Below are positions 3,601-17,859 of a DNA stretch of 64,000 bases, one piece after another. The stretch's first letter is position 1. Each line of letters begins with the position of its first letter. Origin of the DNA: a phage; sequence record PZ386969.1, one strand, 5' to 3'. Made by a program: the position numbers and the translations under genes. The notes beneath the pieces were generated by a model. That model worked only from the letters and a program-made list of their open reading frames with translations, did no database searches and was not told the DNA's origin.

Positions 3601-6600
3601 TTATGCCAGAGCAATCAAACGGAAATCTTTGAATGACGGCGGTGCTATGCGGTTGCCTCTGACCAGCAGGCGGATCTTCAGGCCAACGAAAGGATTGGTG
3701 CTGTCTACAGTCTTGTCATACTCATATTCGAAGAATGTAGAACCGTCATTGACCAGAGGGGATGTCGGTGCCACAGTTTCCCATGCCACATTATCCATCT
3801 CCTGGCCTGCGCGCAGCAGTTTAACCTGCACAGTCATTGAAGACTGAGAAGGTAGCATCGCGCCGAAGTATTGCTTCAGAGTGGTGCAAGGGTTATCGAA
3901 TCCGATATCCTTGGTCACATAGCTGAACACATCTTCAAACGGATCCACACCGTAGGTGTTGAAGATGATAGTGAAATCATCACCGTCGATCATTGGAGCC
4001 GTGTAGACATTACTCTCGTTGCGAGTCATGGTTGCACGAACCTGGAAGTCGCCCACCTGACGATAGATACCTTCTGTCTCCAGAGACACGTCCGTGTCGG
4101 ATTCGAACTCAACCCAATCAGAGAATGAGTTGGAGGTCGCATCGCGATAGCGGTATTCCAGTTTCAATACAGATCCTTCTAGGGCTGAATTGGTGACGCT
4201 TGCGTAGAACATGTCTACCAAGTAGTTGCCTAGGAAAGAAGCCGCTTCACCACCAATCTGACCGTCGGAGTCGGCGTTGGAACTCAGAACGAATTTGAAC
4301 GTCGTGAACGTCGCATCAGTCACAGTGTGTTGAGCGTTCAGTTGCTCAGGAGTGAAACCGCAACCACCCGTCAACCCAGACAGAGTAACACTTTCACCCG
4401 CAGTCAGGCCATGCCCCGGAGCGTACACAGTAACAGTTGAAGAACCGTTGACACATTTCACGGTGTTCAGACCCAGAGGGCGGATCTTCGGACCGACTTT
4501 AGCATCGAAGGTCACGATGTTTGAACCAGCGGAGAAGTTACAGCGATACACACGGAACTTCATATCGGCAGTCTGGTTTGGAGTCCAGGTCGTACCATTT
4601 GAAGATGTGAAGAACACGCCAGTGTACGGCTGTTTGGCAATGAACTCGTTGGTCAGCAAGTTCTTCTTACCCATCTCTGCGATGTATGCGTTGTAGTCCT
4701 GAGTGTTGGCCAAGAGAACAATCGCGAACTCAGTCTGCGCCTGCAGATACACAGGATAATCAAACTTGAACATCGTCGGCACAGAAGAGTCTGTGGAGAT
4801 GGAAACTTCTGATGGATTCAGAGTCTTACGAGTGACGACAGTCGTCGCTGGCAGACCATTGCTCATCTCACGGATTTCCAGAGTGATCGGGATATCACGG
4901 GACTTGGTAGAGAAGAACACTTCAATACCTTCGATGTATTCGCCGCCGATATTGGTGGCAACCATGAAGGACTGGGCGATAGGATCTTTCCACTTCGCGA
5001 CTTCAACCGTCTCTGTTTTGTTTTCCGTAGACTTGGTCGCAGTGTATCCCAGGACGCGAGTGTTGACATAAGTCTTCTGGATGCCCTGTTTCTTGCCGAA
5101 GGACTTATGAACAGCCTCGGCATTGGTCAGGGTATCATCAGCAGACTTGCTATCCACAGGACTGTCAGTCAGACGGAAGACGTTGTCGCCCGTGTTAAAC
5201 TTGATAGTCTCGTTCTGAGGAACCGCAAACACACCTTTGATGTTGCCGTTGGCATCAGTGTTCAACGCACCACCCAGTACACCACCGTTTGGGGTACAGT
5301 ACGCGCTCACATCACGTCCAGAGAAGAACGGATACACACGAGTGAACGGACGTAGACCTGTGGCTTCGAAGTTGATATTCGTTTTGCGCATGTATGGGAT
5401 TACCTGCGTTTCAACGATCTGCTCGCCAGTCAGGGTAGTGGTCGTCTTGTCGGTGTACGTGTACGTGGTGACGTCACGGGTAGACACAGTCGTGCGGTAG
5501 CGATAGCCCCACCATACACCACCTGCACCATGCGGTTCCCACACACGCTCAGACACAGACACAGTACGCCATGTGCCATACACAGAACCTTCTTTGATCG
5601 CACCACGGGTGTTGATCGTTTCGTTGATCACACGTGGGGTGACATAGTAGTTCTCAAACCAGTAATCAGTAGTCGGGTTCAGCTTCAAGAAGCCTTCCCA
5701 GTTGAACACCGCATACGGGTTCACGTTGATGGTCGTGGTTGCATAGTCCTGGCGGACAGAGATCTCACGGGTGTAGTTGCATACAACCATGCCATCCTGA
5801 ACGTTGTTCCAACCGACTGGCGTCAGGTCAATCGCGTTCTGCTGAACAAACGGGCGTAGGCGACCATTGTCAGTGTCGATTGAACCCACCCAGTCTGCAG
5901 ACAAATCGTCGATCAGACGGAAGTCTTTGAACGGGTCTGCTGCGATACCGTTCTTGAAGCGCGGGTTACCAGTAATTGGATCGAACACCTGTTGTGACAT
6001 CGCCGAGGATTCCAGCTGAGACAGTGAGGTGTAATATTCGACATTGGAGATACGGGTCTCCAGTTTACCGATATCGCGCATCGTGTAGCGGCGGTTGTCG
6101 ATAGTACGAATCTGGATGTCGTCAATGTTGGCCGTGTATGGTGGGATCATCAATTCATACAGGCGCATGCCGTTGTCTGGGATCGCAGGGGAAGCCAGGT
6201 TGTTGGAACTCACACCACGAGCAACGTTGAACACGCCGTTGTCTGCCAGATACACAGCATCAATACGAGGCAGATAGTACTCTGCATCTAGGATGATCGC
6301 GGTGTTCGGACGAACCATGTCCGTGTCAGACGCTCCGCTGGTGATCTTGGGACGGAAATCCAGACTGTCGGCCAATCCATACACAGTACCAGAACTGGAT
6401 GAAACATAGTTCGGGATGTCTGGGTAGTTGATGGACGAATAGGAGTCCGCTGTGAAGAAATCACCAGAGCTGTGAGCGAAATACTGATACACCACCGTGA
6501 ACGTCCCTGAAATGGCTCCTGTGGACGATATGAGGTTAGAAAGGTAGTATGCCGCATCGCGTTGACCACCGTCCAGAGTGAAGTTCGAGGTGACGTCAGC

Positions 6601-8439
6601 GCCATTTGCGTTCTTCACGCTGATCAGCTTGTAACCATCATGGTTCCCAAGTTGTGCGCTGGCCGCCGCAGTAAACGTCACAGTCTCGGTGGCTTCGGTA
6701 ACAGTCTTGGTCTTGATCGTCGCTGTGGTGCGGACCATCAATGCCAACAGGTTGATAGACTGGTTGGCATACCCCGCACCCAGGGAAATCTGCAGTGCTG
6801 AACCAACCGGAGTACCAGCCAGGGACAGTCCCGAAGAGATATCAAACTGAGCTGCAGTGCCATCTGCCTTCGCTGCGGAGTACAGTGAAAACTCAGGGCT
6901 GAAGCTGTAACCCAGAGGAGCAGAGATTGAGCCTGCACCAGCGGCGTTCAACGTGATCTTGTTTGACCGCAGGACGGTGTAGTTGATGTCGATGGTGCCT
7001 GTAGGTGCTAGAGTCTTCACACCAAATACAGGCAGAGGGAAGATCAGGTCAATTGCTGAACTCTGGCTGAACTGATTGGACTCCAGTTCGCAGGAGAACA
7101 TGGTTGTGCCGCTTTCTTCGTATGCAACTTTGGTAACAGTACCCATGTCCCCAGTCACAACCAGGTCGCGCATATACAGACGGAATTCAGTACCGGAGCG
7201 CTCTGCCGAAATCAGCAGGGCGGTGGCCTGCACATCGCTGGATGCGTTCAGGAACTTGTAGCGGATTGTGCGGGAGACAACCGGAACCCCTTTGGAGTTC
7301 TTGGACACCAGATAGTTGCCAGTCGAAACAGCCACAGGGTTGTTGTTCAGGATATCAGTGTCACGGGCTTTGTCAATTATGACCAGCTCTTCGCCGAGGT
7401 TTTCGATACGACGACCACGAACGTAGGAAATGCCTGGCTTCATAACAGCCACGAATTTGCTTTCATCACCACCTTCAGCCGGAGTGTATACGCCACCGTT
7501 GTTGTTCTGTTTCAGATGTTCGCGTAGGTCGATCTGGTGAGTAGAGACGTTGTAGTCACCATTGGTCTCATAGGTACGCTGAGCCATGGCGTCTTCGAGG
7601 ATGTTGTATGTTGACTGGGTGACCATGGACTGAATGCGACCGTCTTTCACCTTCGCCAGTTCGACGAAGTCGGCCACTTCTTCATCATAACCGTAGCGAG
7701 ACAACACGAGGTCGACGCGCAGGCGATGCGCACCAGGGGCTTTAGAGTTCGGAGTACCCTGAGCATTGGAGAACAGACTTTCATCTTCTGCTTCAGTCAC
7801 GATTGTTTCTGTAACTTTGAAGCCAATGCGGTGAGATGTAGAGTTCGATGCGTTGTCTACGATCAAAGTGGTTGGTTCAACATCCAGGAACATACCACGA
7901 ACGAAATAAACACCCTTTGTCATGCGAGCGACAATCGAACCGCCAACAGTATCGGCCACACCATAGCCGACACGGATGAAGTTATCGTTCACGTCATAGG
8001 TGTTGAAGTATAGATTGTCACCAGCTTCGAAACCGTCTGAACTACCACTCTCAGTCATCTCTAAGATGGCATACATTGTATCCGGCTCAGCTGGATAACG
8101 TTCCAAGGACAGGACGCGTGCTTTCGCATTGTTGTCCTTGCCCAGAACATAGAGTTCGGAGATACCTTCCAGATCAGTGAACTCACTACCGCCAGCCAGA
8201 GTGAACTTCATGGACACAGCAGTGTTGGTGATCGTTAGGCCGCCGGGGATAACCATTGAACCGTCTTTGAACAGATGGTTGCCAAGTTTCTCCAGTTGAT
8301 CCTGGAAGATGGTCTGCATCTGGTTCAGTTCACGCGTCTGAACTTTGATAGGTGCCGGACGGAATAGGATGCGCGAAAAACGCTTCTCTGGATTCCAGTC
8401 ATCCCAATATGGGCGGCGGTTGAGGTTCATTTCTTGCAT
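3601..8439 (-). CDS. very large virion structural protein (~1612 aa), Thr/Ser/Gly-rich, likely baseplate or fibre component
   Basis: track start 8487 is TTG; first ATG at 8439 has GGAG 7 nt upstream; composition and position in structural operon. Confidence 0.6.
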   Translation of the reverse strand: MQEMNLNRRPYWDDWNPEKRFSRILFRPAPIKVQTRELNQMQTIFQDQLEKLGNHLFKDGSMVIPGGLTITNTAVSMKFTLAGGSEFTDLEGISELYVLGKDNNAKARVLSLERYPAEPDTMYAILEMTESGSSDGFEAGDNLYFNTYDVNDNFIRVGYGVADTVGGSIVARMTKGVYFVRGMFLDVEPTTLIVDNASNSTSHRIGFKVTETIVTEAEDESLFSNAQGTPNSKAPGAHRLRVDLVLSRYGYDEEVADFVELAKVKDGRIQSMVTQSTYNILEDAMAQRTYETNGDYNVSTHQIDLREHLKQNNNGGVYTPAEGGDESKFVAVMKPGISYVRGRRIENLGEELVIIDKARDTDILNNNPVAVSTGNYLVSKNSKGVPVVSRTIRYKFLNASSDVQATALLISAERSGTEFRLYMRDLVVTGDMGTVTKVAYEESGTTMFSCELESNQFSQSSAIDLIFPLPVFGVKTLAPTGTIDINYTVLRSNKITLNAAGAGSISAPLGYSFSPEFSLYSAAKADGTAAQFDISSGLSLAGTPVGSALQISLGAGYANQSINLLALMVRTTATIKTKTVTEATETVTFTAAASAQLGNHDGYKLISVKNANGADVTSNFTLDGGQRDAAYYLSNLISSTGAISGTFTVVYQYFAHSSGDFFTADSYSSINYPDIPNYVSSSSGTVYGLADSLDFRPKITSGASDTDMVRPNTAIILDAEYYLPRIDAVYLADNGVFNVARGVSSNNLASPAIPDNGMRLYELMIPPYTANIDDIQIRTIDNRRYTMRDIGKLETRISNVEYYTSLSQLESSAMSQQVFDPITGNPRFKNGIAADPFKDFRLIDDLSADWVGSIDTDNGRLRPFVQQNAIDLTPVGWNNVQDGMVVCNYTREISVRQDYATTTINVNPYAVFNWEGFLKLNPTTDYWFENYYVTPRVINETINTRGAIKEGSVYGTWRTVSVSERVWEPHGAGGVWWGYRYRTTVSTRDVTTYTYTDKTTTTLTGEQIVETQVIPYMRKTNINFEATGLRPFTRVYPFFSGRDVSAYCTPNGGVLGGALNTDANGNIKGVFAVPQNETIKFNTGDNVFRLTDSPVDSKSADDTLTNAEAVHKSFGKKQGIQKTYVNTRVLGYTATKSTENKTETVEVAKWKDPIAQSFMVATNIGGEYIEGIEVFFSTKSRDIPITLEIREMSNGLPATTVVTRKTLNPSEVSISTDSSVPTMFKFDYPVYLQAQTEFAIVLLANTQDYNAYIAEMGKKNLLTNEFIAKQPYTGVFFTSSNGTTWTPNQTADMKFRVYRCNFSAGSNIVTFDAKVGPKIRPLGLNTVKCVNGSSTVTVYAPGHGLTAGESVTLSGLTGGCGFTPEQLNAQHTVTDATFTTFKFVLSSNADSDGQIGGEAASFLGNYLVDMFYASVTNSALEGSVLKLEYRYRDATSNSFSDWVEFESDTDVSLETEGIYRQVGDFQVRATMTRNESNVYTAPMIDGDDFTIIFNTYGVDPFEDVFSYVTKDIGFDNPCTTLKQYFGAMLPSQSSMTVQVKLLRAGQEMDNVAWETVAPTSPLVNDGSTFFEYEYDKTVDSTNPFVGLKIRLLVRGNRIAPPSFKDFRLIALA

Positions 8440-8469
8440 TTTGATGCTCCATCGATAGGTGCCATTATA

Positions 8470-8482
8470 GAGATATTTAGTA
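8470..8482 (-). promoter_or_regulatory. late-promoter-like CTAAATATCT upstream of the large structural gene
   Basis: minus-strand CTAAATATCTCTATAATGG about 35 nt before the ATG. Confidence 0.4.
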
Positions 8483-8647
8483 TACAACCAACCGAGGAAT
8501 AGAAAGAAATAAGCCCGAAGGGGCTTTGATTATCTTTCTGTGGTTATGGTCATGGATTCGAGACCTCTGCCATTCATGGTAGATGGTATTCAATTAGGTA
8601 TGTTTAATATATCAGGTCAGACTATTACCTTAACTGCTGTATCGATT

Positions 8648-8680
8648 AGGGTAATGCAAACAGTAAACTCTATATAAAAA
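8648..8680. repeat. ~35-nt conserved element downstream of a tailspike gene (copy 1; copy 2 at 13505..13540)
   Basis: AGGGTAATG(C/A)AAACAGTAAACTCTATATAA shared at both loci, each just 3-prime of a tailspike stop. Confidence 0.6.
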
Positions 8681-8695
8681 GTATTATTAATAAGT

Positions 8696-8728
8696 AAAAA
8701 CAACCCCATAGAAGTGGGGTTGTTTTTA
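8696..8728. terminator. bidirectional rho-independent terminator
   Basis: AAAAACAACCCCAT-AGAA-GTGGGGTTGTTTTT. Confidence 0.6.
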
Positions 8729-8740
8729 AGTGATTATTAC

Positions 8741-10657
8741 TTACATAACAACTGCGGCAGATATGTATCCTGAATCTTGATACGATCCAGAAAGGTCAAA
8801 AACTTCTAAGTTAAAAGAGTCAGGGGATGTACTTACGACATTAATTACTAATTTCCCTCCGCTAGTGGTATTGCCAACACTGCATAAAACAGCATAAGCA
8901 GAGGAGGGCATAGTATTAGATAGGTTGACGGTATATTTACCGGTCCCGGTTTTAGTTACAGTTGCTCCATCCGCATACACTGACGACCCCGAAATTCCAT
9001 TAAAATTGATCATTGCCCGTGTACATGCACTCGACCTTTTTGCGACGGTAGACCCAATAAATGCGTATTCTTGGGCCTTGTTAATATAAATCTTATTAAC
9101 AGAAGTGTCAGGTACTTGTAAGACGTTATCTATAACAACATTACAGGCTGTTGCTCCAGATACGGTAGAGCATCTATCTATCTCATAATTGTCGATATTA
9201 ATAGCCCTTACAAAACCTATACCCCCAAATGCTGACCAGTTTTGTTTAACAAGAACACCGGAAATACCGGACAGGAAAATAAGATCGCCTGTCGTATCTT
9301 TGCTAAACGTGTTGTTGGTTATTGAAACAGAAGAAGAACGCGGTGAGTGACTATCATCTGCAACATATACCCTGGCTAAAGAAGAAGCAGTATTCTCTTC
9401 AAAGTAGTTACCATCTACCAGTAACTGCTGTGCACCCCCGGCGACAACACCTACGTCATAGCCCGTGTTTGCTTCAAATAGAGAGTCTCTGACTATGAAA
9501 TTTCGTACACTACTTGCAGTACCTGAGTCTCCGATAAGAACACCGTTAACACCATCAAAGAAAGTACAATTATCAACTTTAACTACGTTGATATCTACTT
9601 TTGACGTTTTTACACCATTTGCACATTTAGCGAAATAGCATGAAGTTAGCTCAGCCACCCCGGAAAAATAGTCTGGGGCGTCGTAATGTAAATAAACACC
9701 GTACCGGGCGTTTCTGACAACGCAATCTTGAAGTTTTAGGTACCAAGCCCCTCCGAAATCAAAACCATCAGACGATGAGTCCTGAATATCCAAGAAAAGT
9801 CCAGAAATCTTAGCTCCTATCGCACCACCTTGAACCCGAATGGCGGGTGACGCTAACCCGGTAAACTTAATTACTGAACCTGTTGTTTGGTCATTAACAT
9901 GTCCAAAACTATTACCAACAATACATAGACTATCAGTGGCAGTTATGATTAAAGTAGAGCTTATAAGATAAATACCATCCGGTATGTATAAACTCTTTTT
10001 CGAATCTATTGCTGCCTGAAACGCGGCGGTATCATCGGTCACACCGTCGCCAACAGCCCCGAAGTCCTTGACTGACACCAGGTCTTTATTTTTATCATGT
10101 AGTGTTCGCTTAATGGAGTTGGCCAGAGGTGACTTAAATCCGACCAGACCAGCGCCATCATCAGATGCAAGATTGATTCTCAAGGCTGCATCACCAACAC
10201 TAACCCACTTGTCTAACCCAGTACCTCCAGCACTTTCAGGAGTTGAGCCAGAAGAAACGGTTTTAGGTAACTCACCATCCCAGCGATACTTACCTGTTGT
10301 ATGGGTAAGCAATTCATTTTTAACATTAAGTGTAGCACCATTGTCAAACGACCCAGACAATGTAACGTATTCTTCACGAGATACGGCTAATTCCCCAAGA
10401 TCTACGGAACCAGCTGAATGTACAAGTACGGCATTAGTACCAAGACTTACAGCAGTCACCCCCGAACCAATGTCAGCAGGCAAGGAATAGGCACGCTGAG
10501 TAGCCTTATCATAAATTACTTTGTAACCACCTAAGTCTACACCTACAGCAAAGTAGACTACCTCATTCTGTTTAACACCAAACTTACGGGCAATGGCTTG
10601 CTTATTGGTAAGAATACCAGTAGAGCCTTTACCACCTTGTGAGAACATTTCGTTCAT
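8741..10657 (-). CDS. tailspike protein (638 aa), conserved N-terminal region plus beta-helix-like body
   Basis: N-terminal block VVYFAVG..GYKVIYDK..VLVHSAGSVDLG..REEYVTL..RWDG shared with the two neighbouring genes; repetitive C-terminal body; AAGAGG ribosome site. Confidence 0.75.
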   Translation of the reverse strand: MNEMFSQGGKGSTGILTNKQAIARKFGVKQNEVVYFAVGVDLGGYKVIYDKATQRAYSLPADIGSGVTAVSLGTNAVLVHSAGSVDLGELAVSREEYVTLSGSFDNGATLNVKNELLTHTTGKYRWDGELPKTVSSGSTPESAGGTGLDKWVSVGDAALRINLASDDGAGLVGFKSPLANSIKRTLHDKNKDLVSVKDFGAVGDGVTDDTAAFQAAIDSKKSLYIPDGIYLISSTLIITATDSLCIVGNSFGHVNDQTTGSVIKFTGLASPAIRVQGGAIGAKISGLFLDIQDSSSDGFDFGGAWYLKLQDCVVRNARYGVYLHYDAPDYFSGVAELTSCYFAKCANGVKTSKVDINVVKVDNCTFFDGVNGVLIGDSGTASSVRNFIVRDSLFEANTGYDVGVVAGGAQQLLVDGNYFEENTASSLARVYVADDSHSPRSSSVSITNNTFSKDTTGDLIFLSGISGVLVKQNWSAFGGIGFVRAINIDNYEIDRCSTVSGATACNVVIDNVLQVPDTSVNKIYINKAQEYAFIGSTVAKRSSACTRAMINFNGISGSSVYADGATVTKTGTGKYTVNLSNTMPSSAYAVLCSVGNTTSGGKLVINVVSTSPDSFNLEVFDLSGSYQDSGYISAAVVM

Positions 10658-10678
10658 AACGACCTCTTTGTTTTTCTA

Positions 10679-10701
10679 AGAAACCCCGCCGAAGCGGGGT
10701 T
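10679..10701 (-). terminator. GC hairpin with CTTCGG-type loop between tailspike genes
   Basis: AACCCCGC-TTCG-GCGGGGTT on minus strand after stop of gene 10706..13210. Confidence 0.5.
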
Positions 10702-10705
10702 AGTT

Positions 10706-13210
10706 TTACGAGTAAGCACTCTCGAACTTACAAAACCAGGTTGCTCCTTCATCAGTTGTTGACAACCTAAAAACTTGTGTTCCAGCTGCTGTCAAAGATG
10801 GGGTATTGCTTGCTAATTTAACATTTGCACCAAATGTTATTGTTTTAGATGTTGTTGAACAGACAGCCAAAAGAACCTCAACATAACCAATTAGTGTATT
10901 TGTTAATACTGCTGGAGTTATTGTTACATCTCCTGTAACTGTAGCTGCGATGTAAGATGCGTCTGAAAAGTCAGGCGCATAACTTGCTGTTGGCGTCTCG
11001 AACTTTGGATTTCTTACCAATACAGGAACTCCAACATTTTTCCTGAAAATTGTACTATTGCAAACCATATCATACTCTATACCAACAAAATTCTTAGCTG
11101 CAAGTATGTTAGTAAATGTCTGGTCCGCAGAGTAAATATGAGTTATCAGCCTTGCCACCCATGCTGGTGAGTTTGAGTTTTCACACTCAATGAATGAACA
11201 GTTGATACTACCAACGGCGAATGGCATTAGTGATGCCGTATATGAAGATAGCCCTGCGTCATTAAACGCATTCATATTCACAAACGTCTGGCATTGAGAG
11301 AACGTATTACCGGTGGCTCCACCATCAATAAAAAAGCCAATCCCGCCGTTAATATAACCATCTACAGGATCTAAATTAGCTTTCGCGTAGTCCCATTTTG
11401 ATGGAGAATCTGCAAAACATTGATTGAAGGAATTGTTTATTGAGTTCTGTACAACAAAGCAGCATTTCATCCTTGAGTTCTGGTCAGTGACTGTATCGTC
11501 ATACATGCCCCAGTTGTGCACCTTACTAATTCTGTTATTGCCACCACCACGAACCCAGGTACCAAATCGGAAATAACGACCTTCACCCATACTAACCTGA
11601 TGATCGCTACCTTCAACAATGTGGGCTGTGCTGAGTGGATTAGTTGGTTTTAATACACCAACAGCATAAAACTTCAATAGGTGCACACCCATACCGCCAG
11701 CAATATGGATGCCATGACCATCAATATTGGCTACGTAAATGCCATCTAACTTGTTGGCATAACCATCAGATATTTTAAATCCATTAACAGTTTTTGCACG
11801 GGCATCAATTAAAAGATTGCTAATGTGCCCAGCGTATTGATTACCTGTACCTTTATCACACTTTACAGCATAACCAGATGAGTCTGCTATGAAGTCATCT
11901 GTCAGGTATACCCCACCGAAACCAGCATCAATGCTAACATCTCCGTGAATGTGTAGTGTCGTACTGATAGGATATTTCTTCCCATTCAGCCTGATAACTT
12001 TGCTTACAGTGTTAGGTTGTAGCCAGTCAGGATGGTTAGCAGCACTACTTGGTGCATGTTCTAAACCTGTTAAAGCTGCCGCAGCATCAATCGCATCCTG
12101 TAATGATGGATACATATCCGGGTTGACATTTATAATTTTCTTAAGCGCATTGCCAACAGTACCAGTTTCGTAATCAATTGACTTATCAAAACCTGAAAAA
12201 CCTGCTCCTGTAGGTTTAGCCAATTCTGACTTCAATGAAGCATCACCAACACTAACCCATGCACCTGTTCCAACACCACCGGTTGATGTAGTGGTTGAGT
12301 CAGCGGGGACAACTTTAGGTAGTGCACCCTCCCACGTATAGCACTGACCACCAGCGATGTGCCAAACAGCATCCGTTTCACTATTAACTGTTGCACCTTC
12401 TTCAAAGCTACCAGCAACGAGAGATAAACCTGCTTCTGCAAGTAAACGTCTCCACAATTCTCTGGTATTCGACTCTTGATGAGTAGGTAACAAAGTAACA
12501 GTAATATTACCTGGATTGTACGTTAACTGCCCATTACTAACGGATGAGATGTATATGTTAGAGGGTAATGAAGGTAACCCATATGACTTCTGCTCACTAA
12601 CAGAGTAGACAATCTTTTTACCATTCAATAATTGCGTAGTGTCAGTGCTAAGAATTACTTCACTGTCCTTAACGTTAGTTGCACGAGCGATTTCTTGAAT
12701 ACTTCGGTCAAACAACGGACTGATATTCGGTTGTTTAACAGACATTTCAGCGACTACCCAAACGCCTGCAGTCAGCGCAGTTTGTAAAGACACTTTCCCT
12801 GTCGTGCTGTCATAGGAATATTCAATTTCGGGTGTTTTGTACTCACCACCGATATAAAGAGATTGGACTCCATAATATGTGTAATCAGGAGTGAACTCGG
12901 TTTCACCTCCTATAGCCTGAAACTTATAGATTCGAACCCCGGTTTTATAATCTTCTGGAGACAGAATCTTATCAAACAGACAGAACACAACGTCACCTTT
13001 GGATAATGCGCGTCCGAGATTCAACGTATTTCCATCGATTTCAAAGTTGTCTAACGGAACTTGCATGCCACCGTTGATTGTGACTATACCAGTGACAGGG
13101 TAGAAAGGGAGGGAGATAAACTTCTCTCCACCCGTTGCTGTGTAAGTGTATGGAATCTGGTGCGGAGCTGTTACGACCGCTCCAAAGATGCTCTCGACGT
13201 TTCTGGTCAT
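10706..13210 (-). CDS. tailspike protein (~834 aa from second ATG)
   Basis: shares N-terminal conserved block with neighbours; second ATG at 13210 has GGGG ribosome site while ATG at 13225 lies inside the hairpin. Confidence 0.75.
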   Translation of the reverse strand: MTRNVESIFGAVVTAPHQIPYTYTATGGEKFISLPFYPVTGIVTINGGMQVPLDNFEIDGNTLNLGRALSKGDVVFCLFDKILSPEDYKTGVRIYKFQAIGGETEFTPDYTYYGVQSLYIGGEYKTPEIEYSYDSTTGKVSLQTALTAGVWVVAEMSVKQPNISPLFDRSIQEIARATNVKDSEVILSTDTTQLLNGKKIVYSVSEQKSYGLPSLPSNIYISSVSNGQLTYNPGNITVTLLPTHQESNTRELWRRLLAEAGLSLVAGSFEEGATVNSETDAVWHIAGGQCYTWEGALPKVVPADSTTTSTGGVGTGAWVSVGDASLKSELAKPTGAGFSGFDKSIDYETGTVGNALKKIINVNPDMYPSLQDAIDAAAALTGLEHAPSSAANHPDWLQPNTVSKVIRLNGKKYPISTTLHIHGDVSIDAGFGGVYLTDDFIADSSGYAVKCDKGTGNQYAGHISNLLIDARAKTVNGFKISDGYANKLDGIYVANIDGHGIHIAGGMGVHLLKFYAVGVLKPTNPLSTAHIVEGSDHQVSMGEGRYFRFGTWVRGGGNNRISKVHNWGMYDDTVTDQNSRMKCCFVVQNSINNSFNQCFADSPSKWDYAKANLDPVDGYINGGIGFFIDGGATGNTFSQCQTFVNMNAFNDAGLSSYTASLMPFAVGSINCSFIECENSNSPAWVARLITHIYSADQTFTNILAAKNFVGIEYDMVCNSTIFRKNVGVPVLVRNPKFETPTASYAPDFSDASYIAATVTGDVTITPAVLTNTLIGYVEVLLAVCSTTSKTITFGANVKLASNTPSLTAAGTQVFRLSTTDEGATWFCKFESAYS

Positions 13211-13215
13211 TTGAA

Positions 13216-13255
13216 GATACCCCATAGAGGATTTGCCAATATGGGGTATTTAGTC
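13216..13255 (-). promoter_or_regulatory. late-promoter-like CTAAATACCCC with inverted copy GGGGTAT covering the translation start
   Basis: perfect 10-bp inverted repeat ATACCCCATA/TATGGGGTAT. Confidence 0.5.
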
Positions 13256-13290
13256 TGAACTAATAAATTTATGAACAAAGGTATAACAAG

Positions 13291-13310
13291 AACCCCGCCA
13301 AAGCGGGGTT
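13291..13310. terminator. GC-rich hairpin
   Basis: AACCCCGC-CAAA-GCGGGGTT. Confidence 0.4.
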
Positions 13311-13318
13311 TGACACTC

Positions 13319-13492
13319 CTATTCCAGACACATTTCAAAATGTATACCAACATCACCCCACCCATCATAAACAGACGACCCCGATATTCTTGATCCATCT
13401 ATGTTGGCGAAATAAAAATACGCTGACCCATCATTGATATCACCTATAAAGTTCTTATACCCGTTTGATGACAACCCGAGAGAGAGCCAACA
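13319..13492 (-). pseudogene. possible relic of a tailspike C-terminal segment (no start codon)
   Basis: minus-strand frame gives ...ANIDGSRISGSSVYDGWG...; the heptapeptide ISGSSVY also occurs near the C-terminus of tailspike 8741..10657 (NFNGISGSSVYADG). Confidence 0.3.
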
Positions 13493-13504
13493 GCATTATC
13501 AATC

Positions 13505-13540
13505 AGGGTAATGAAAACAGTAAACTCTATATAATAAAAG
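13505..13540. repeat. conserved element downstream of tailspike gene (copy 2)
   Basis: see 8648..8680. Confidence 0.6.
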
Positions 13541-13562
13541 CCCCCAAAATTGGGGGCTTTTT
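13537..13562. terminator. bidirectional rho-independent terminator
   Basis: AAAGCCCCC-AAAATT-GGGGGCTTTTT. Confidence 0.6.
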
Positions 13563-13568
13563 ATTATA

Positions 13569-16500
13569 CTACCAGTAATACCAATCACCTTTTTTACTTC
13601 TGACTAGAATAGAACAATCGGTAACAGCTACTGTAGACACCCCACCAATCCTTATCTCATACAGTTTACTAGGCAATCTTTTCTTAGTTAGAGAGACTTT
13701 AAAATCTGTACCAGTTACAGTGATATATTCCGTCCCATCCTCACTATCTATCTGTAAATCTAGGCCGCTGGGACTTGCTGGGAGCTTAACATAAAGCTGT
13801 TGTTCTGCTGTACTACCAGCAAAATGACCGATAACTGTAGATGTCCACTCACTTAAAGTCAACCCTGAACGCACAAAGTCTACATTGAGCGGTTCCTTAA
13901 TAAGTGCAGCAGGTGCATTGTAATTATGCCCGTTAAGTACATAGTAGTTGCTGCTACCAACCTCTACTGTGTCTGCTGTGCAGTAAGAGTGGAAGGTTTT
14001 TGCGTTATCAAAGCGATATAGACTTCTGATTAGCACACGCTCTTGATTGCTTCTGGTTAAAATGCCACAACCTGCGGAAAGGTGGAGTGTGGAGATGGTA
14101 AGCGTATGACTTTCACTGTTGGCCTTGGATGACAGCAATGACACCTTGGGTTCACCCTCTTGAGTAAAGTCTTTACTATTACCCTCACAGTACATGACCC
14201 CAATGTCCCACGCAGCAGGGTCCATTGTTACTACCCCAGCACCTGCCGTATTCTCAGAGCAAATCACACCAACACTGGTAGACAAACCACGACCTAAGAT
14301 AATACCAGCACCTATTGTATATTTACTCGCATCATCCGTGATTGGGTCATAACCTAGTCCCGTAGACTTATCAGTACCCCATGCACTAATGTGAGGGAAG
14401 TGTGTAGCATTCACATAGGTATCCCCTTGCTCACCTTCTGTTGAATAACCTAATGCCATACCCCTTGCACAGTTGTTTGCATGGAGAGTGCCCATTTGAA
14501 AATACCAGCAAGCAAACATTACAATGCCATATCTATTAGCATTATATGCATAGATGCTACCCATCTCAGATTCTGCACACAGAAGACGTGCATAAAAACC
14601 ATATGATGCAATATCTGCACAGTCTACGTTTAAGCTACCGATTAAGCGTAATCCTCGCACTTGATTCTCTGTATTAGCCACATCCACTGTTGCTGTACCG
14701 ACAGGAAATTTACTAACGCGTACAACAGCTTTTAACGTAGGCCATACGGAGCCAATTGCTTTAATTGTTGCCCCGTTTAGATTCCCACGTAAGTAAGAAG
14801 GTATAACAACCTCATCCGTTACGTGGTAGGTAGAATTCCCATTCAGATTTAATGTACCTGTGGCTATAGCTAGTTTTATAGCAGGTAAACAGTCAAAACT
14901 AGGGTCATTGGGGATTGCACCAAAATTCTCAGGTGAGTGTTCATTAAACCCTGTTAGCTTACCAACGTTAGTCCAAGAAGAGTCTGGGGCAGCACCATAA
15001 CTAACAGGTAGTGTCCCATTGTACTTGTACCAGAACCCATCTGAATGTAGAACAACCTGATATTTATCGGATACATTCCCACCATCACCGAATACACCGC
15101 TCTTTTTGTAAAGAGACAGACTACCGGAATCAATAAGAGAAGAACCTTTCCAGGAGGCTAAACGTTGCTCTAATCCAACAACACCAACTACAAGCCATGC
15201 CCCTGGACCAACACCTCCTGTACCCAATGGGGTAGATTCTGGAGGGACTACTTTGGGTACAGAACCATCCCAACGATATTTAATATCGTTACTCACAACC
15301 AACTCATTCTTGGTATTAACAGTTACACCTGTATCGAATGAACCAGGTAAGGTCACATACTCCTCACGAGATACGGCTAATGCGCCCAGATCAACACTAC
15401 CAGCAGAATGCACAAGTACAGCCGAAGAACTAAGGCTGACTGCCGTGGTTCCAGTCGGTAGCTCTGGAATAAAATATGATCTCTGTGTTACTTTATCATA
15501 GATAACTTTATACCCGCTTAGCACAGCACCAACACTAAAATAAACGACCTCTGTATCTTTAACATTGGTTACACGAGCCACTTCCCGCAAAGTATGATCA
15601 ATTTGATTATAGATGTTTGGTGTTCCATTGATAATTACAACAACTTCATCTTCTGGTTCCAGTTCTTGCGCCAGAGTGATTTTACTGGTTAATGGATCGA
15701 ATGTGAATCCCAGATTTTTATACTGACGACTTCCGTTTATATCAATGGCCGGAACATCATCAACAACGACGTCCAACGTGATTTCGGTTTCACCGCCAAT
15801 CGCTGAACCCCCATTATAGACCCAAGTAATCGTAGAAGAACTAGAACCACCGCCATTACCCAATTGAATAGGAGTATATTCAATCACCTGAAGTTCTGTG
15901 CTGGCTGGCAAAGAAGGACTGAAAGTGATTACATTCCCATCTAGTGAATATTTGGATTCCGCAAGGCGTTTTCCGTCAGCATACACGTCCACGATTGTTG
16001 GTGGAGTATTGAGAGTGACAGTACTTGTTTCAGACGCCAAAATTTTTGTAAAGATTTCACGACTGTAGACACGGCCTTGGCCAAGACCGACGCCGGATGT
16101 AATAATCCAACCTTGTTCAGGTCCAGACCAAGTGAACGTTGCTGATACGTTATCAGTTGTTATAGCCATGTCTTCAGTGGAGCCATACAAATTATTTCCA
16201 GAAGGAGACACGGTCAATGGGTAAGTGGCAAATTTCCCATAAGCATCACAAATAGTAACGGAATCCCCAATACGCGTAGGGGAAGGGAGAACCACTGTAG
16301 ATGCCCCTGTGGTATTATTAATGAGATAGCCTCGCCCTTCAGTGAGCGTTGCCGTAGAGGCATGCGGAAGGACTTCCCAGCGGATGCCACCGCCACCCAG
16401 CGGCAACCAACCACCATTTTCGTAATAACCTTCGAATTCGTCGGAGTCGGCATTGTAGCGAACGGAAGACGGGAGTCCTGCGCTGGCATTACCCTCGGGT

Positions 16501-16622
16501 AAAGTCAGGACAGCATCTGGTCCATGCTCAATCGTACCCGTGTTGAGGACACCAGCCAAAGTAGACTGCTCTTCAGCCGCCAGACCGAGAGGGAAAACAG
16601 GCTGTGTTGGTTTATTAGCCAT
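13569..16622 (-). CDS. tailspike protein (~1017 aa from second ATG)
   Basis: N-terminal conserved block (VVYFSVG..GYKVIYDK..VLVHSAGSVDLG..); long repetitive body; start chosen at ATG 16622 after GGGGTATTTGAA. Confidence 0.75.
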   Translation of the reverse strand: MANKPTQPVFPLGLAAEEQSTLAGVLNTGTIEHGPDAVLTLPEGNASAGLPSSVRYNADSDEFEGYYENGGWLPLGGGGIRWEVLPHASTATLTEGRGYLINNTTGASTVVLPSPTRIGDSVTICDAYGKFATYPLTVSPSGNNLYGSTEDMAITTDNVSATFTWSGPEQGWIITSGVGLGQGRVYSREIFTKILASETSTVTLNTPPTIVDVYADGKRLAESKYSLDGNVITFSPSLPASTELQVIEYTPIQLGNGGGSSSSTITWVYNGGSAIGGETEITLDVVVDDVPAIDINGSRQYKNLGFTFDPLTSKITLAQELEPEDEVVVIINGTPNIYNQIDHTLREVARVTNVKDTEVVYFSVGAVLSGYKVIYDKVTQRSYFIPELPTGTTAVSLSSSAVLVHSAGSVDLGALAVSREEYVTLPGSFDTGVTVNTKNELVVSNDIKYRWDGSVPKVVPPESTPLGTGGVGPGAWLVVGVVGLEQRLASWKGSSLIDSGSLSLYKKSGVFGDGGNVSDKYQVVLHSDGFWYKYNGTLPVSYGAAPDSSWTNVGKLTGFNEHSPENFGAIPNDPSFDCLPAIKLAIATGTLNLNGNSTYHVTDEVVIPSYLRGNLNGATIKAIGSVWPTLKAVVRVSKFPVGTATVDVANTENQVRGLRLIGSLNVDCADIASYGFYARLLCAESEMGSIYAYNANRYGIVMFACWYFQMGTLHANNCARGMALGYSTEGEQGDTYVNATHFPHISAWGTDKSTGLGYDPITDDASKYTIGAGIILGRGLSTSVGVICSENTAGAGVVTMDPAAWDIGVMYCEGNSKDFTQEGEPKVSLLSSKANSESHTLTISTLHLSAGCGILTRSNQERVLIRSLYRFDNAKTFHSYCTADTVEVGSSNYYVLNGHNYNAPAALIKEPLNVDFVRSGLTLSEWTSTVIGHFAGSTAEQQLYVKLPASPSGLDLQIDSEDGTEYITVTGTDFKVSLTKKRLPSKLYEIRIGGVSTVAVTDCSILVRSKKGDWYYW

Positions 16623-16624
16623 TT

Positions 16625-16666
16625 CAAATACCCCTAAATGTGTTCGTTTCATCTAGGGGTATTTAG
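16625..16666 (-). promoter_or_regulatory. late-promoter-like CTAAATACCCC with inverted copy immediately before the ATG
   Basis: perfect 11-bp inverted repeat AAATACCCCTA/TAGGGGTATTT. Confidence 0.5.
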
Positions 16667-16668
16667 TT

Positions 16669-17859
16669 TTAGAAAGAAGCTACAATAGAATAATCGACCG
16701 AACAAGCAGTTGTTGTATTCGCATTAACAACGGAAACTCTCAATTTACCACCCACCACAGCCCCTGTGAACGTCACTGTACCGCTCGTACTTTTCTGAAC
16801 CAACAACTCCGACTTGATAGTTCCGTCGCGAGTTATGGTTACTCGATATGTATCAACAACGTTACCTGTTCCCCATTGCGCGGTCACCAGTATTTGACAA
16901 AGGTTCACCAAATCAAAATCTGGAAGAGCCGTCGTCCCAGAAGCCGAAACCGTGTAAGAAGACAAATTCGTTTTGGTACGATAAACGGCGTTCCCTAAAC
17001 TATTGTCGACAGAGGTCATCTTGGCATTATACGTTGATACGCTAACTTTATCACTGGAAAGAGAACTGATGCTGTTATCCAGAGATGACATCTTCGTGTT
17101 GTACGTGCTAACCTCGACTTTATTACCCAGAGACGTATTGATATTGGAGATACTCAAATCCAATGACGCCATCTTCGTGTTGTAAGTCGAGGTGTTAACT
17201 TTCCCGTTTAACGATGTGTTGATGTTATTGATTCGGGACTCTAGACTCAGCATATCTGCGTCATACGCTGTCGTTGTCACATATCCATTAAATCGGTTAT
17301 CTGCAAACAACGCATCAAAAAATGCAGTCATTGTCCAATAACGCGCTCCAGAATCTGTTTGTACTGGAATTGAAGTTGGCATCGTTGATCCGGTATACGC
17401 AGACAATCTGGTGAAATCCAAATTGAATTTGTAATATCCGGATGTCAACAACTCCCCAGCCAAACCAGAACCAGGTGGGGTAGTGTCTTCACTGACACCA
17501 TGCTTTCTCAACATGCTCAGGTTAACACCATCTGTCGCTATCGTAGGCTCATCCACGATAGACAGTTTCTTCCCAGCCGGAACAGTCAGGCCGCCGTTGG
17601 CGGTCAACAACGCAACAAAAGTCTTGCTCCCATTGATCGTTTGTTCACCACCGTCGGTGCGGATCACTTTGTTTTTCAGTGTGTCGTAGATATTATCCAC
17701 AGAACGCTTCAGCTCGTATGTCAGATGAGCTGAAGGAGGGAACAACGGATCATCAACAGCGAAATCGTTGACAACATCAGTCTTGCTTATTTTATCGTCA
17801 ACAGAAGAAAGGATTGCATCAATCTGCTGACCTGTGTATCGACTCAGAAAATCGGCCAT
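16669..17859 (-). CDS. tail fibre protein with three tandem ~21-aa repeats (396 aa)
   Basis: repeat units INNINTSLNGKVNTSTYNTKMASLD / ISNINTSLGNKVEVSTYNTKMSSLD / SDKVSVSTYNAKMTSVD; sits between baseplate and tailspike genes. Confidence 0.6.
   Translation of the reverse strand: MADFLSRYTGQQIDAILSSVDDKISKTDVVNDFAVDDPLFPPSAHLTYELKRSVDNIYDTLKNKVIRTDGGEQTINGSKTFVALLTANGGLTVPAGKKLSIVDEPTIATDGVNLSMLRKHGVSEDTTPPGSGLAGELLTSGYYKFNLDFTRLSAYTGSTMPTSIPVQTDSGARYWTMTAFFDALFADNRFNGYVTTTAYDADMLSLESRINNINTSLNGKVNTSTYNTKMASLDLSISNINTSLGNKVEVSTYNTKMSSLDNSISSLSSDKVSVSTYNAKMTSVDNSLGNAVYRTKTNLSSYTVSASGTTALPDFDLVNLCQILVTAQWGTGNVVDTYRVTITRDGTIKSELLVQKSTSGTVTFTGAVVGGKLRVSVVNANTTTACSVDYSIVASF

Follow-up and report, generated by a model that had tools for sequence, protein, structure and literature searches.

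Gene fragments downstream of phage tailspike genes as footprints of cassette exchange between phage families

In the phage sequence record PZ386969.1, a short DNA element stands immediately downstream of two tailspike genes, and the spacer that holds its second copy also carries an open frame without a start. What are these pieces of DNA, and how did they come to lie between tailspike genes? We addressed this question in a window of 64,000 nucleotides (nt), the whole stretch of DNA analyzed (G+C 48.8%), which holds the tailspike cluster of an Agtrevirus-like Aglimvirinae (Ackermannviridae) phage of Escherichia coli. The two spacers concerned, 13226–13568 and 8488–8740, are very probably recombination scars, made of dead gene fragments that were brought in with imported tailspike cassettes. 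These cassettes were borrowed from N4-like and P22-like phages, and the locus is a case of ordinary, well-resolved tailspike mosaicism.

The repeat and the knob gene

The 30-nt core of the element, AGGGTAATGNAAACAGTAAACTCTATATAA, is present in exactly two exact copies in the window (8648–8677 and 13505–13534) and in none of 100 shuffles, and the extended repeat spans 49 nt at 86% identity (8632–8680 versus 13489–13537). An earlier note, made from the sequence alone, had described a 35-nt element repeated 3′ of two tailspike genes, and the repetition itself is borne out. Both copies lie just beyond a strong terminator hairpin that comes after a tailspike stop codon, and they are downstream of these stop codons because the tailspike genes are on the minus strand.

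Sensitive blastn searches with both spacers matched ~72-kb N4-like podophages of the genus Gamaleyavirus (pSb-1, UE-S5a/b, Bp4, PD38, ECBP1, EC1-UPM, ZQ2, and St11Ph5), always just 3′ of the tailspike gene gp63.1. At that position, pSb-1 and UE-S5b carry an open reading frame (ORF) of 208 amino acids (aa) on the opposite strand, convergent with the tailspike and ending in FMVDGIQLGMLNISGQVITLTAVSVRVMQTVNSI before its stop codon. The plus strand of the window encodes PFMVDGIQLGMFNISGQTITLTAVSIRVMQTVNSI and a stop codon at 8570–8677, and TALSIRVMKTVNSI and a stop codon at 13490–13534. With the pSb-1 protein gp17 as tblastn query, the former aligned to residues 174–208 (8570–8674, 91% identity, E = 7e-15) and the latter to residues 195–208 (13490–13531, 79% identity); this second match is weak alone (E = 0.13), and we assign it because it lies within the 49-nt repeat and ends at the shared stop codon. 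Because the plus strand of the window reads matching codons to the same stop, we identify the repeat as the 3′ end, in antisense, of the gene for a 208-aa TNF-like knob protein (pSb-1 gp17, phrog_17779); it is thus a piece of a convergent gene and not a free-standing noncoding element.

Repeat copy 2 (13489–13537, plus strand, antisense to the tailspikes) comprises the last 14 codons and stop of the knob gene, and repeat copy 1, together with 62 nt to its left, comprises the last 35 codons and stop (8570–8677, also plus strand and antisense). This latter feature leaves out 8678–8680, the final 3 nt of the 49-nt repeat, and is overlapped by a mechanical ORF at 8540–8677. The likeness to gp17 thus consists of 79–91% protein identity to its C-terminus and the same stop codon beside the same terminator; the difference is that just 14 and 35 of 208 codons are left in the window, with no credible start, and an intact knob gene is absent. 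In Gamaleyavirus-type podophages, the knob gene and gp63.1 converge on one bidirectional terminator between them, and the layout of tailspike, terminator, and knob gene or stub is found in pSb-1, UE-S5b, ZQ2, St11Ph5, and the metagenomic contig L017 as well as in the window. The plus-strand side of 13313–13488 showed no similarity to the knob gene in the gp17 tblastn search, and we rejected this stretch as a more degraded part of it.

As far as sequence and predicted structure can tell, the knob gene is real and not a spurious ORF, because it defines phrog_17779, forms 40 clusters at 90% identity in a large protein collection (mostly 201–225 aa, with 12 of the 40 from 71–75-kb contigs), has a ratio of nonsynonymous to synonymous differences (pN/pS) of 0.09 between two full-length copies, and has a predicted fold. 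It has no Pfam match. The AlphaFold model of the protein, with a mean predicted local distance difference test score (pLDDT) of 78, has a C-terminal TNF-like jelly roll, and the best Foldseek matches to it were the tail-needle knobs of Sf6 and HS1 and the TNF-like lectin PLTL; for the pSb-1 gp17 family, we predict a TNF-like knob fold. Existing annotations of phrog_17779 include 'tail needle knob' in UE-S5b and 'protease' in Salmonella N4-like phages.

At least 10 Aglimvirinae phages, as well as many genomes of Gamaleyavirus, have the repeat 3′ of tailspike genes, as expected by the earlier note for related phages. In tblastn searches of the phage collection, the full-length knob gene was detected only in ~70-kb N4-like genomes, and the Ackermannviridae carried 3′ fragments only. 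The Aglimvirinae fragments are nested and 5′-truncated, ranging from 14 to 85 codons, and wherever a locus was inspected closely, the fragment runs to the stop codon next to a tailspike terminator. The longest, knob residues 129–208, were found in A221 and LHE287 after the gene at the tailspike protein 1 (TSP1) position and in RPN242, PC3, PH4, and SKML-39. Residues 135–208 remain after TSP3 in YX22 and residues 139–208 in fGh-Ecl02; residues 174–208 remain in CAU_YEP3 and after the TSP1-position gene both in the window and in a second copy in YX22; and residues 195–208 remain after TSP4 in the window and AV101. Some gamaleyaviruses keep just ~33–37 knob codons as well (ZQ2, EC1-UPM, PE007, and contig L017). 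The remnant in St11Ph5 (L003, ~3970–4035) resembles an internal deletion that joined residues ~121–135 (...TVREWG) to the last seven codons (MQTVNSI and stop), a tentative reading in view of the very weak match upstream (E = 8.8 by tblastn). Scans of IMG/VR for exact patterns of the core returned 0 matches and then 1, on a contig matching the pSb-1 genome, and scans of JGI metagenomes returned 2, on a 73-kb N4-like contig and a 1-kb contig.

Differences among the knob fragments are overwhelmingly synonymous in the plus-strand frame (pN/pS 0.04–0.18, pS 0.3–0.6), with pN/pS values of 0.13 between A221 and LHE287, 0.11 between A221 and the YX22 copy after TSP3, and 0.04 between the two YX22 copies. 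Because in-place decay of noncoding DNA should bring pN/pS near 1, this divergence would have arisen inside intact genes and thus through separate captures from different donor alleles. The pattern of substitutions therefore indicates that the knob fragments stem from several independent captures.

The open frame and its parent family

The spacer 13226–13568 also contains the start-less open frame of the earlier note, which has 58 codons on the minus strand (13322–13495) and reads ...ISGSSVYDGWG.... Its parent family was recovered only by an exhaustive HMMER search against 1.8 billion representative proteins, in which the relic matched P0043, a protein of 336 aa (E = 2.7e-8). BLASTP aligned residues 8–54 of the relic with residues 202–249 of P0043 (31 of 48 identical), and blastn of the relic found 82% identity over 100 nt to contig L012, which carries the P0050 gene, and 68% over 159 nt to contigs L013–L015. 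By contrast with that exhaustive search, the 58-aa frame, used as tblastn query on 50,697 phage records, matched only the AV101 spacer and no tailspike, a word-indexed search of 5.8 billion proteins returned only P0001, a read-through ORF (69 aa) from the copy of this spacer in contig L009, and a back-translated pattern scan of IMG/VR for the frame found nothing.

Members of the P0043 family (P0046–P0056) come from E. coli, Citrobacter, and E. albertii genomes and from short metagenomic contigs. The relic aligns with the family over 48 residues, or ~150 nt, at 65–75% protein identity (the upper figure is a manual count against P0050), and its closest relative is P0050, which reads LSSNGYENFIGDINDGPAYFYFADIDDGSRTSEPSVYDEQDDVARYFE. 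From these alignments, the open frame is best described as a decaying internal fragment of a P0043-family CBM-like gene, a pseudogene fragment at 13325–13476 on the minus strand that contains the ISGSSVYDGWG frame and corresponds to codons ~202–250 of the 336-aa family (P0043, P0050). It is an internal piece of ~15% of the gene, and the remaining ~85 codons after it are missing. The P0043 model, of lower confidence (mean pLDDT 67), is a CBM4/CBM11-like beta-sandwich, which makes the family CBM-like by prediction, and the relic corresponds to its last strands and linker. The frame is not conserved, because 2-nt indels break it in the L009 copy and a 64-nt deletion (window 13404–13467, with CAT microhomology at its flanks) breaks it in the AV101 copy. 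The suggestion that this spacer holds a fragment of a displaced host-recognition gene is therefore upheld, with the P0043-family relic as that fragment.

P0043-family genes begin at the stop codon of an esterase-type tailspike, which in P22-like prophages has Head_binding and SASA domains, and in other contigs the P0043-family gene stands before a lysis cassette. This placement, with L010, L011, and L013–L015 as the contigs compared upstream of P0043 and P0052, suggests that the esterase tailspike and the P0043-family gene form a fixed two-gene host-recognition module. In L010 and L011 the preceding gene encodes a tailspike with both these domains, and the ORFs at that position in L012, L013, and L015 have a conserved C-terminal motif in common, ...LHPWCVIF.... 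Directly downstream of the P0050 gene lies an HNH_3 endonuclease gene (L012, 1375–1815), which may be a homing nuclease within the host-recognition module. Set against this family, the relic has up to 82% DNA identity over the matching codons and differs in that only ~15% of the gene is left, in a myophage, with no adjoining esterase tailspike and with frame-breaking differences between copies.

Terminators, breakpoints, and neighboring genes

The hairpins next to the fragments each combine a G+C-rich stem with a T-run and are predicted to be intrinsic (rho-independent) terminators; all those tested had folding energies of -15 to -23.5 kcal/mol with z scores of -3.1 to -5.9, beyond shuffled sequence. 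We distinguish two types. Type B, a G/C-run hairpin immediately after the stop codon, is represented by the bidirectional terminator at 13536–13562 (GCCCCCAAAATTGGGGGC with A- and T-runs), identified on both strands by folding and alignment (-23.5 and -21.7 kcal/mol on its two strands, z about -5) and common to the Gamaleyavirus phage St11Ph5 and L009. Type A, AACCCCGCCGAAGCGGGGTT with a conserved AT-rich tract ahead of it, is represented by a minus-strand hairpin at 13291–13310 (AACCCCGCTTTGGCGGGGTT; pattern scan and folding), which recurs after TSP2 at 10682–10701 and is present in the Gamaleyavirus phage pSb-1. The hairpin at 8695–8728, after the 638-aa tailspike, is a bidirectional variant of type A. 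It and the 13536–13562 hairpin have energies of -19 to -23.5 kcal/mol and z scores of about -5 to -6. A pattern scan for terminators picked 13310–13291, plus 8695–8728 on both strands. We also observed a near-identical 20-nt hairpin, AACCCCGCC-AAG-CGGGGTT, in the window (13291–13310 and 10682–10701) and in pSb-1 (L001, 4134–4154). In the window and in related phages, it comes after several tailspike genes, and it is a second cross-family element at tailspike 3′ ends.

On the minus strand, the larger spacer reads from the tailspike stop codon (13571–13569) through terminator B (13562–13536), the knob stub (13537–13489), a 12-nt junction (13488–13477), the P0043-family fragment (13476–13325), and terminator A (13310–13291) to the TSP2 leader (13290–13226). 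The junction between the two relics, delimited by alignment, contains a CT run that differs in length by 2 nt from the L009 copy. The minus-strand leader and ribosome-binding region of the TSP2 gene (13226–13290) is conserved at 91–100% identity in AV101, LHE287, A221, and YX22. In the spacer at 8488–8740, the terminator (8728–8695) is followed by the knob stub (8677–8570), at whose end the Gamaleyavirus similarity stops at 8570, and from 8569 by Aglimvirinae backbone upstream of the VriC-like gene (8488–8569, minus strand), which has its own hairpin at 8511–8526.

An alignment of the core region in 11 copies from two phage families showed that the last 30 nt are almost invariant, with one of the two terminator types coming next, and types A and B are each found in both families. 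On the far side of the core, AV101 is 95% identical to the window over 13217–13403 and 91% identical over 13468–13537, which ends in the core; beyond the core, their terminators differ and their receptor-binding modules are unrelated. This switch from a shared flank (91–97%) to differing terminators and modules places a crossover where the core ends, and breakpoints thus fall at the repeat, where the earlier note had advised looking for them. Contig L009 (Logan SRR33701177) encodes a short tailspike of 693 aa (36–2117) with a receptor-binding part 88% identical to residues 356–1027 of the TSP4-type protein of the window. Downstream of this gene, L009 repeats the terminator, core, relic, and second terminator of the window (93% over 330 nt), and the DNA past them is unrelated. 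Because the same flank occurs with different modules in AV101, and the same module and its 300-nt flank occur on another scaffold in L009, the proposed exchange of modules at conserved flanks is supported in outline, though the heptapeptide offered as its specific evidence was wrong.

The TSP4 module of YX22 (L007, 13672–15325) shares 95% identity with the TSP2 module of the window, terminator included (10682–12334), so that one module sits at different scaffold positions in the two phages. The 5′ limits of the shared blocks (12334 and ~15200–15560) lie at or just upstream of the Tail_spike_N region, which agrees with the published recombination zone. The central part of the 693-aa L009 tailspike (module in the window at 13569–15563) has 81–83% nt identity to tail-fiber genes of ~40-kb podophages, namely Escherichia phage TM1 and 'Enterococcus phage' EFA-1 and EFA-2; an Enterococcus host label looks doubtful for a module otherwise borne by coliphages. 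A direct repeat of 150 nt (72% identity, 10307–10456 versus 15297–15446) links the 638-aa and 1027-aa genes through their conserved N-terminal regions, where published work places 5′ recombination.

Four big genes surround these spacers, all on the minus strand. By position, they run from a TSP4-type tailspike gene (13569–16652, 1027 aa, stop codon 13569–13571), through a TSP2-type tailspike gene (10706–13225, 839 aa) and a short tailspike gene at the TSP1 position (8741–10657, 638 aa, stop codon 8741–8743) with a pectate-lyase-like receptor-binding domain, to vriC, a gene of 1628 aa (3601–8487) that matches VriC-like families. All three tailspike proteins matched the Pfam Tail_spike_N domain and PHROG tailspike families. 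The N-terminal anchor of the 1027-aa protein is conserved in Aglimvirinae, and its receptor-binding part starts at about residue 356. Megablast of the locus matched Ackermannviridae of the subfamily Aglimvirinae, with E. coli phages YX22, LHE287, A221, AV101, and PC3/PH4 as the closest relatives. The window, LHE287, and A221 have three tailspike genes, and AV101 and YX22 have four; comparison of 13226–16652 places the TSP3 gene of these latter phages where the window has its 343-nt spacer. No single record in the phage collection covered more than 43% of 8000–17000 by megablast, so the tailspike combination of the window is absent from that collection.

Competing explanations and significance of the locus

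The identity of both fragments, their distribution, coding-type divergence, and decay, and the mosaic block boundaries are direct observations, from which we infer the following mechanism. A receptor-binding module would travel with its terminator and a stub of the donor's 3′ neighbor gene, with the 5′ crossover in the N-terminal domains that tailspikes conserve. At the 3′ side, the junction may be illegitimate, which would leave stubs of variable length, or may fall in a stub or terminator already in the recipient that acts as a short homology arm, and repeated rounds would produce nested, decaying fragments. The P0043-family fragment would then be the remainder of an earlier esterase-tailspike two-gene module that was overwritten. 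The composite flank is already present in L009 and AV101. The fragments themselves are probably without function beyond the adjoining terminators.

Could the frame and the repeat instead have arisen within the tailspike locus itself? The earlier note had placed the heptapeptide ISGSSVY at the C-terminus of the tailspike at 8741; it is literally present in that protein, but at residues 555–561 of 638, ~80 residues from the C-terminus. If the frame were the C-terminal remnant of such a tailspike, left after replacement of its receptor-binding module, it would explain the exact seven-residue match, its 21 of 24 identical nt (13366–13389 versus 8974–8997), its rarity in shuffles (exact 7-mer sharing at 0.0002, or 0.02%, against the 638-aa protein and 0.008 against the six-frame window), and the end of the frame 9 nt ahead of the terminator, like that of intact tailspike genes. 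However, BLASTP of the frame against the 638-aa tailspike aligned just 7 of 7 residues (E = 0.23) with no alignment of the flanks, and there was no tailspike among the matches in the phage records, whereas the P0043 family aligns over the full ~150 nt and supplies the heptapeptide as its TSEPSVY, with the family-invariant E, P, and S read as G, S, and S in the relic. We therefore consider descent from a tailspike C-terminus highly improbable and attribute the frame to the P0043 family. ISGSSVY stems from ~5 substitutions in 8 nt relative to the family consensus that made it identical to the tailspike CGGGGTCG. A micro-conversion tract from the tailspike gene could have produced this cluster, but the sample is too small to tell such an event from chance in a neutrally decaying fragment. 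Duplication of one repeat copy from the other spacer, rather than separate acquisition, is suggested by the location of both copies 4.9 kb apart in one locus known to recombine internally and by the repetition of tailspike N-terminal domains there too (family D1). The copies nevertheless have 7 mismatches in 49 nt (over 14 codons, 4 synonymous and 2 nonsynonymous changes) and differ in their truncation codons (174 versus 195) and in the terminators that follow (A versus B), and the 13489–13537 copy moves with its receptor-binding module in L009, which makes an internal duplication rather improbable.

Another explanation treats the repeat as a functional signal conserved in DNA or RNA, such as a promoter for resuming transcription beyond the terminator or a nuclease or recombinase site, and its likeness to a gene end as secondary. 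Such a signal would account for the near-invariance of the 30-nt core across 11 copies and two phage families next to variable codons, and one copy contains a weak sigma-70-like TTTACT-18-GATAAT (13524–13495, 9 of 12 positions). A stem-loop at the tailspike swap boundaries of G7C-like phages was proposed by Babenko et al. as a nuclease site or branch-migration limit, and the HNH endonuclease gene adjoins the P0043-family gene in L012. The other copy, however, lacks the promoter match (GATACA instead of GATAAT), promoter-like sites in the region number 9 versus 14.7 expected from shuffles, substitutions track the plus-strand reading frame (pN/pS about 0.1), and the last 46 nt of full-length genes have 5 differences by an eye count versus ~9% gene-wide, which is no extra conservation. 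A sigma-70 promoter (16–18-nt spacing, required in both copies) was rejected since only one copy matches, and weakly; a structured RNA was rejected as well, since no Rfam family reached its gathering threshold in the spacers (best at most 34 bits versus 41 to 57) and most matches fell on the terminator hairpins. We thus regard a signal of this kind as unlikely. Somewhat easier to credit, though still doubtful, is that knob stub and bidirectional terminator are a maintained portable 3′ homology arm rather than a passive scar, which together with the N-terminal domain as 5′ arm would shuttle modules between N4-like podophages and Ackermannviridae, with the invariant 30-nt core kept for promoting exchange, possibly via a nuclease.

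Several points weigh against the reading of both spacers as scars of imported cassettes. We found no donor genome with both the 638-aa tailspike module of the window and an intact knob gene, and tblastn of the receptor-binding part of this tailspike returned no Gamaleyavirus donor, with only YX22 and dw-ec carrying the module. The direction and number of transfers are deduced from only ~11 copies, and it is from breakpoint positions that a stub is taken as a possible homology arm. Among the copies, variation is lower in the last 30 nt of the knob gene than in the preceding 60 nt, which could reflect a sequence-level function or repeated homogenization; this low variation is in part ascertainment, because truncated copies were found through the core.

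Exchange of receptor-binding modules among Ackermannviridae tailspikes is well described, with recombination placed in the conserved 5′ XD/TD domains and module sharing with G7C-like phages already known (Sorensen et al. 2021, PMC8432352; 2023, PMC10791037; 2024, PMC11414711). The window has the same cluster (vriC, tsp genes, and baseplate wedge), in which N-terminal domains are kept and C-terminal modules swapped, and differs in that it resolves the 3′ boundary to terminators and foreign gene stubs. Those papers contain no discussion of the intergenic or 3′ boundary, and their uses of 'downstream' and 'flank' concern cloning arms and gene order. In the G7C set of phages, a conserved terminator-like stem-loop limits swaps of the gp66 C-terminus, and a role in recombination has been suggested (Babenko et al., bioRxiv 10.1101/542787). 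That stem-loop is likewise a short conserved element directly 3′ of a tailspike gene that bounds swapped C-terminal modules, but it lies between genes 63.1 and 66 in a single podophage lineage, whereas the marker in the window is a knob stub and terminator 3′ of gp63.1-type genes that is common to two phage families. We found no description of the knob-gene stub or the P0043-family relic in the Ackermannviridae and G7C tailspike literature searched. T4-type phages reportedly carry promoter early stem-loop (PeSL) cassettes, said to have been described by Arbiol et al. in 2010, in which short repeated regulatory stem-loops flank variable genes and would act as recombination sites where genes are shuffled. 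These are promoter and stem-loop units of early genes, unlike the terminators and gene stubs of the late structural locus studied here.

The feature is a clear footprint of cross-family tailspike cassette exchange, a well-known class of phenomenon, and the locus reveals no new kind of system. Tailspike swapping sets phage host range and is exploited in phage engineering. Earlier work on Ackermannviridae describes the 5′ crossover zone well, and this locus displays the 3′ boundary as a terminator and a short stub of a neighbor gene from the donor. The stubs serve as provenance tags, one pointing to N4-like Gamaleyavirus-type donors and the other to the esterase tailspike and CBM-like module of P22-like prophages. 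The locus thereby supplies candidate natural homology arms and a simple marker for tailspike traffic between phage families.

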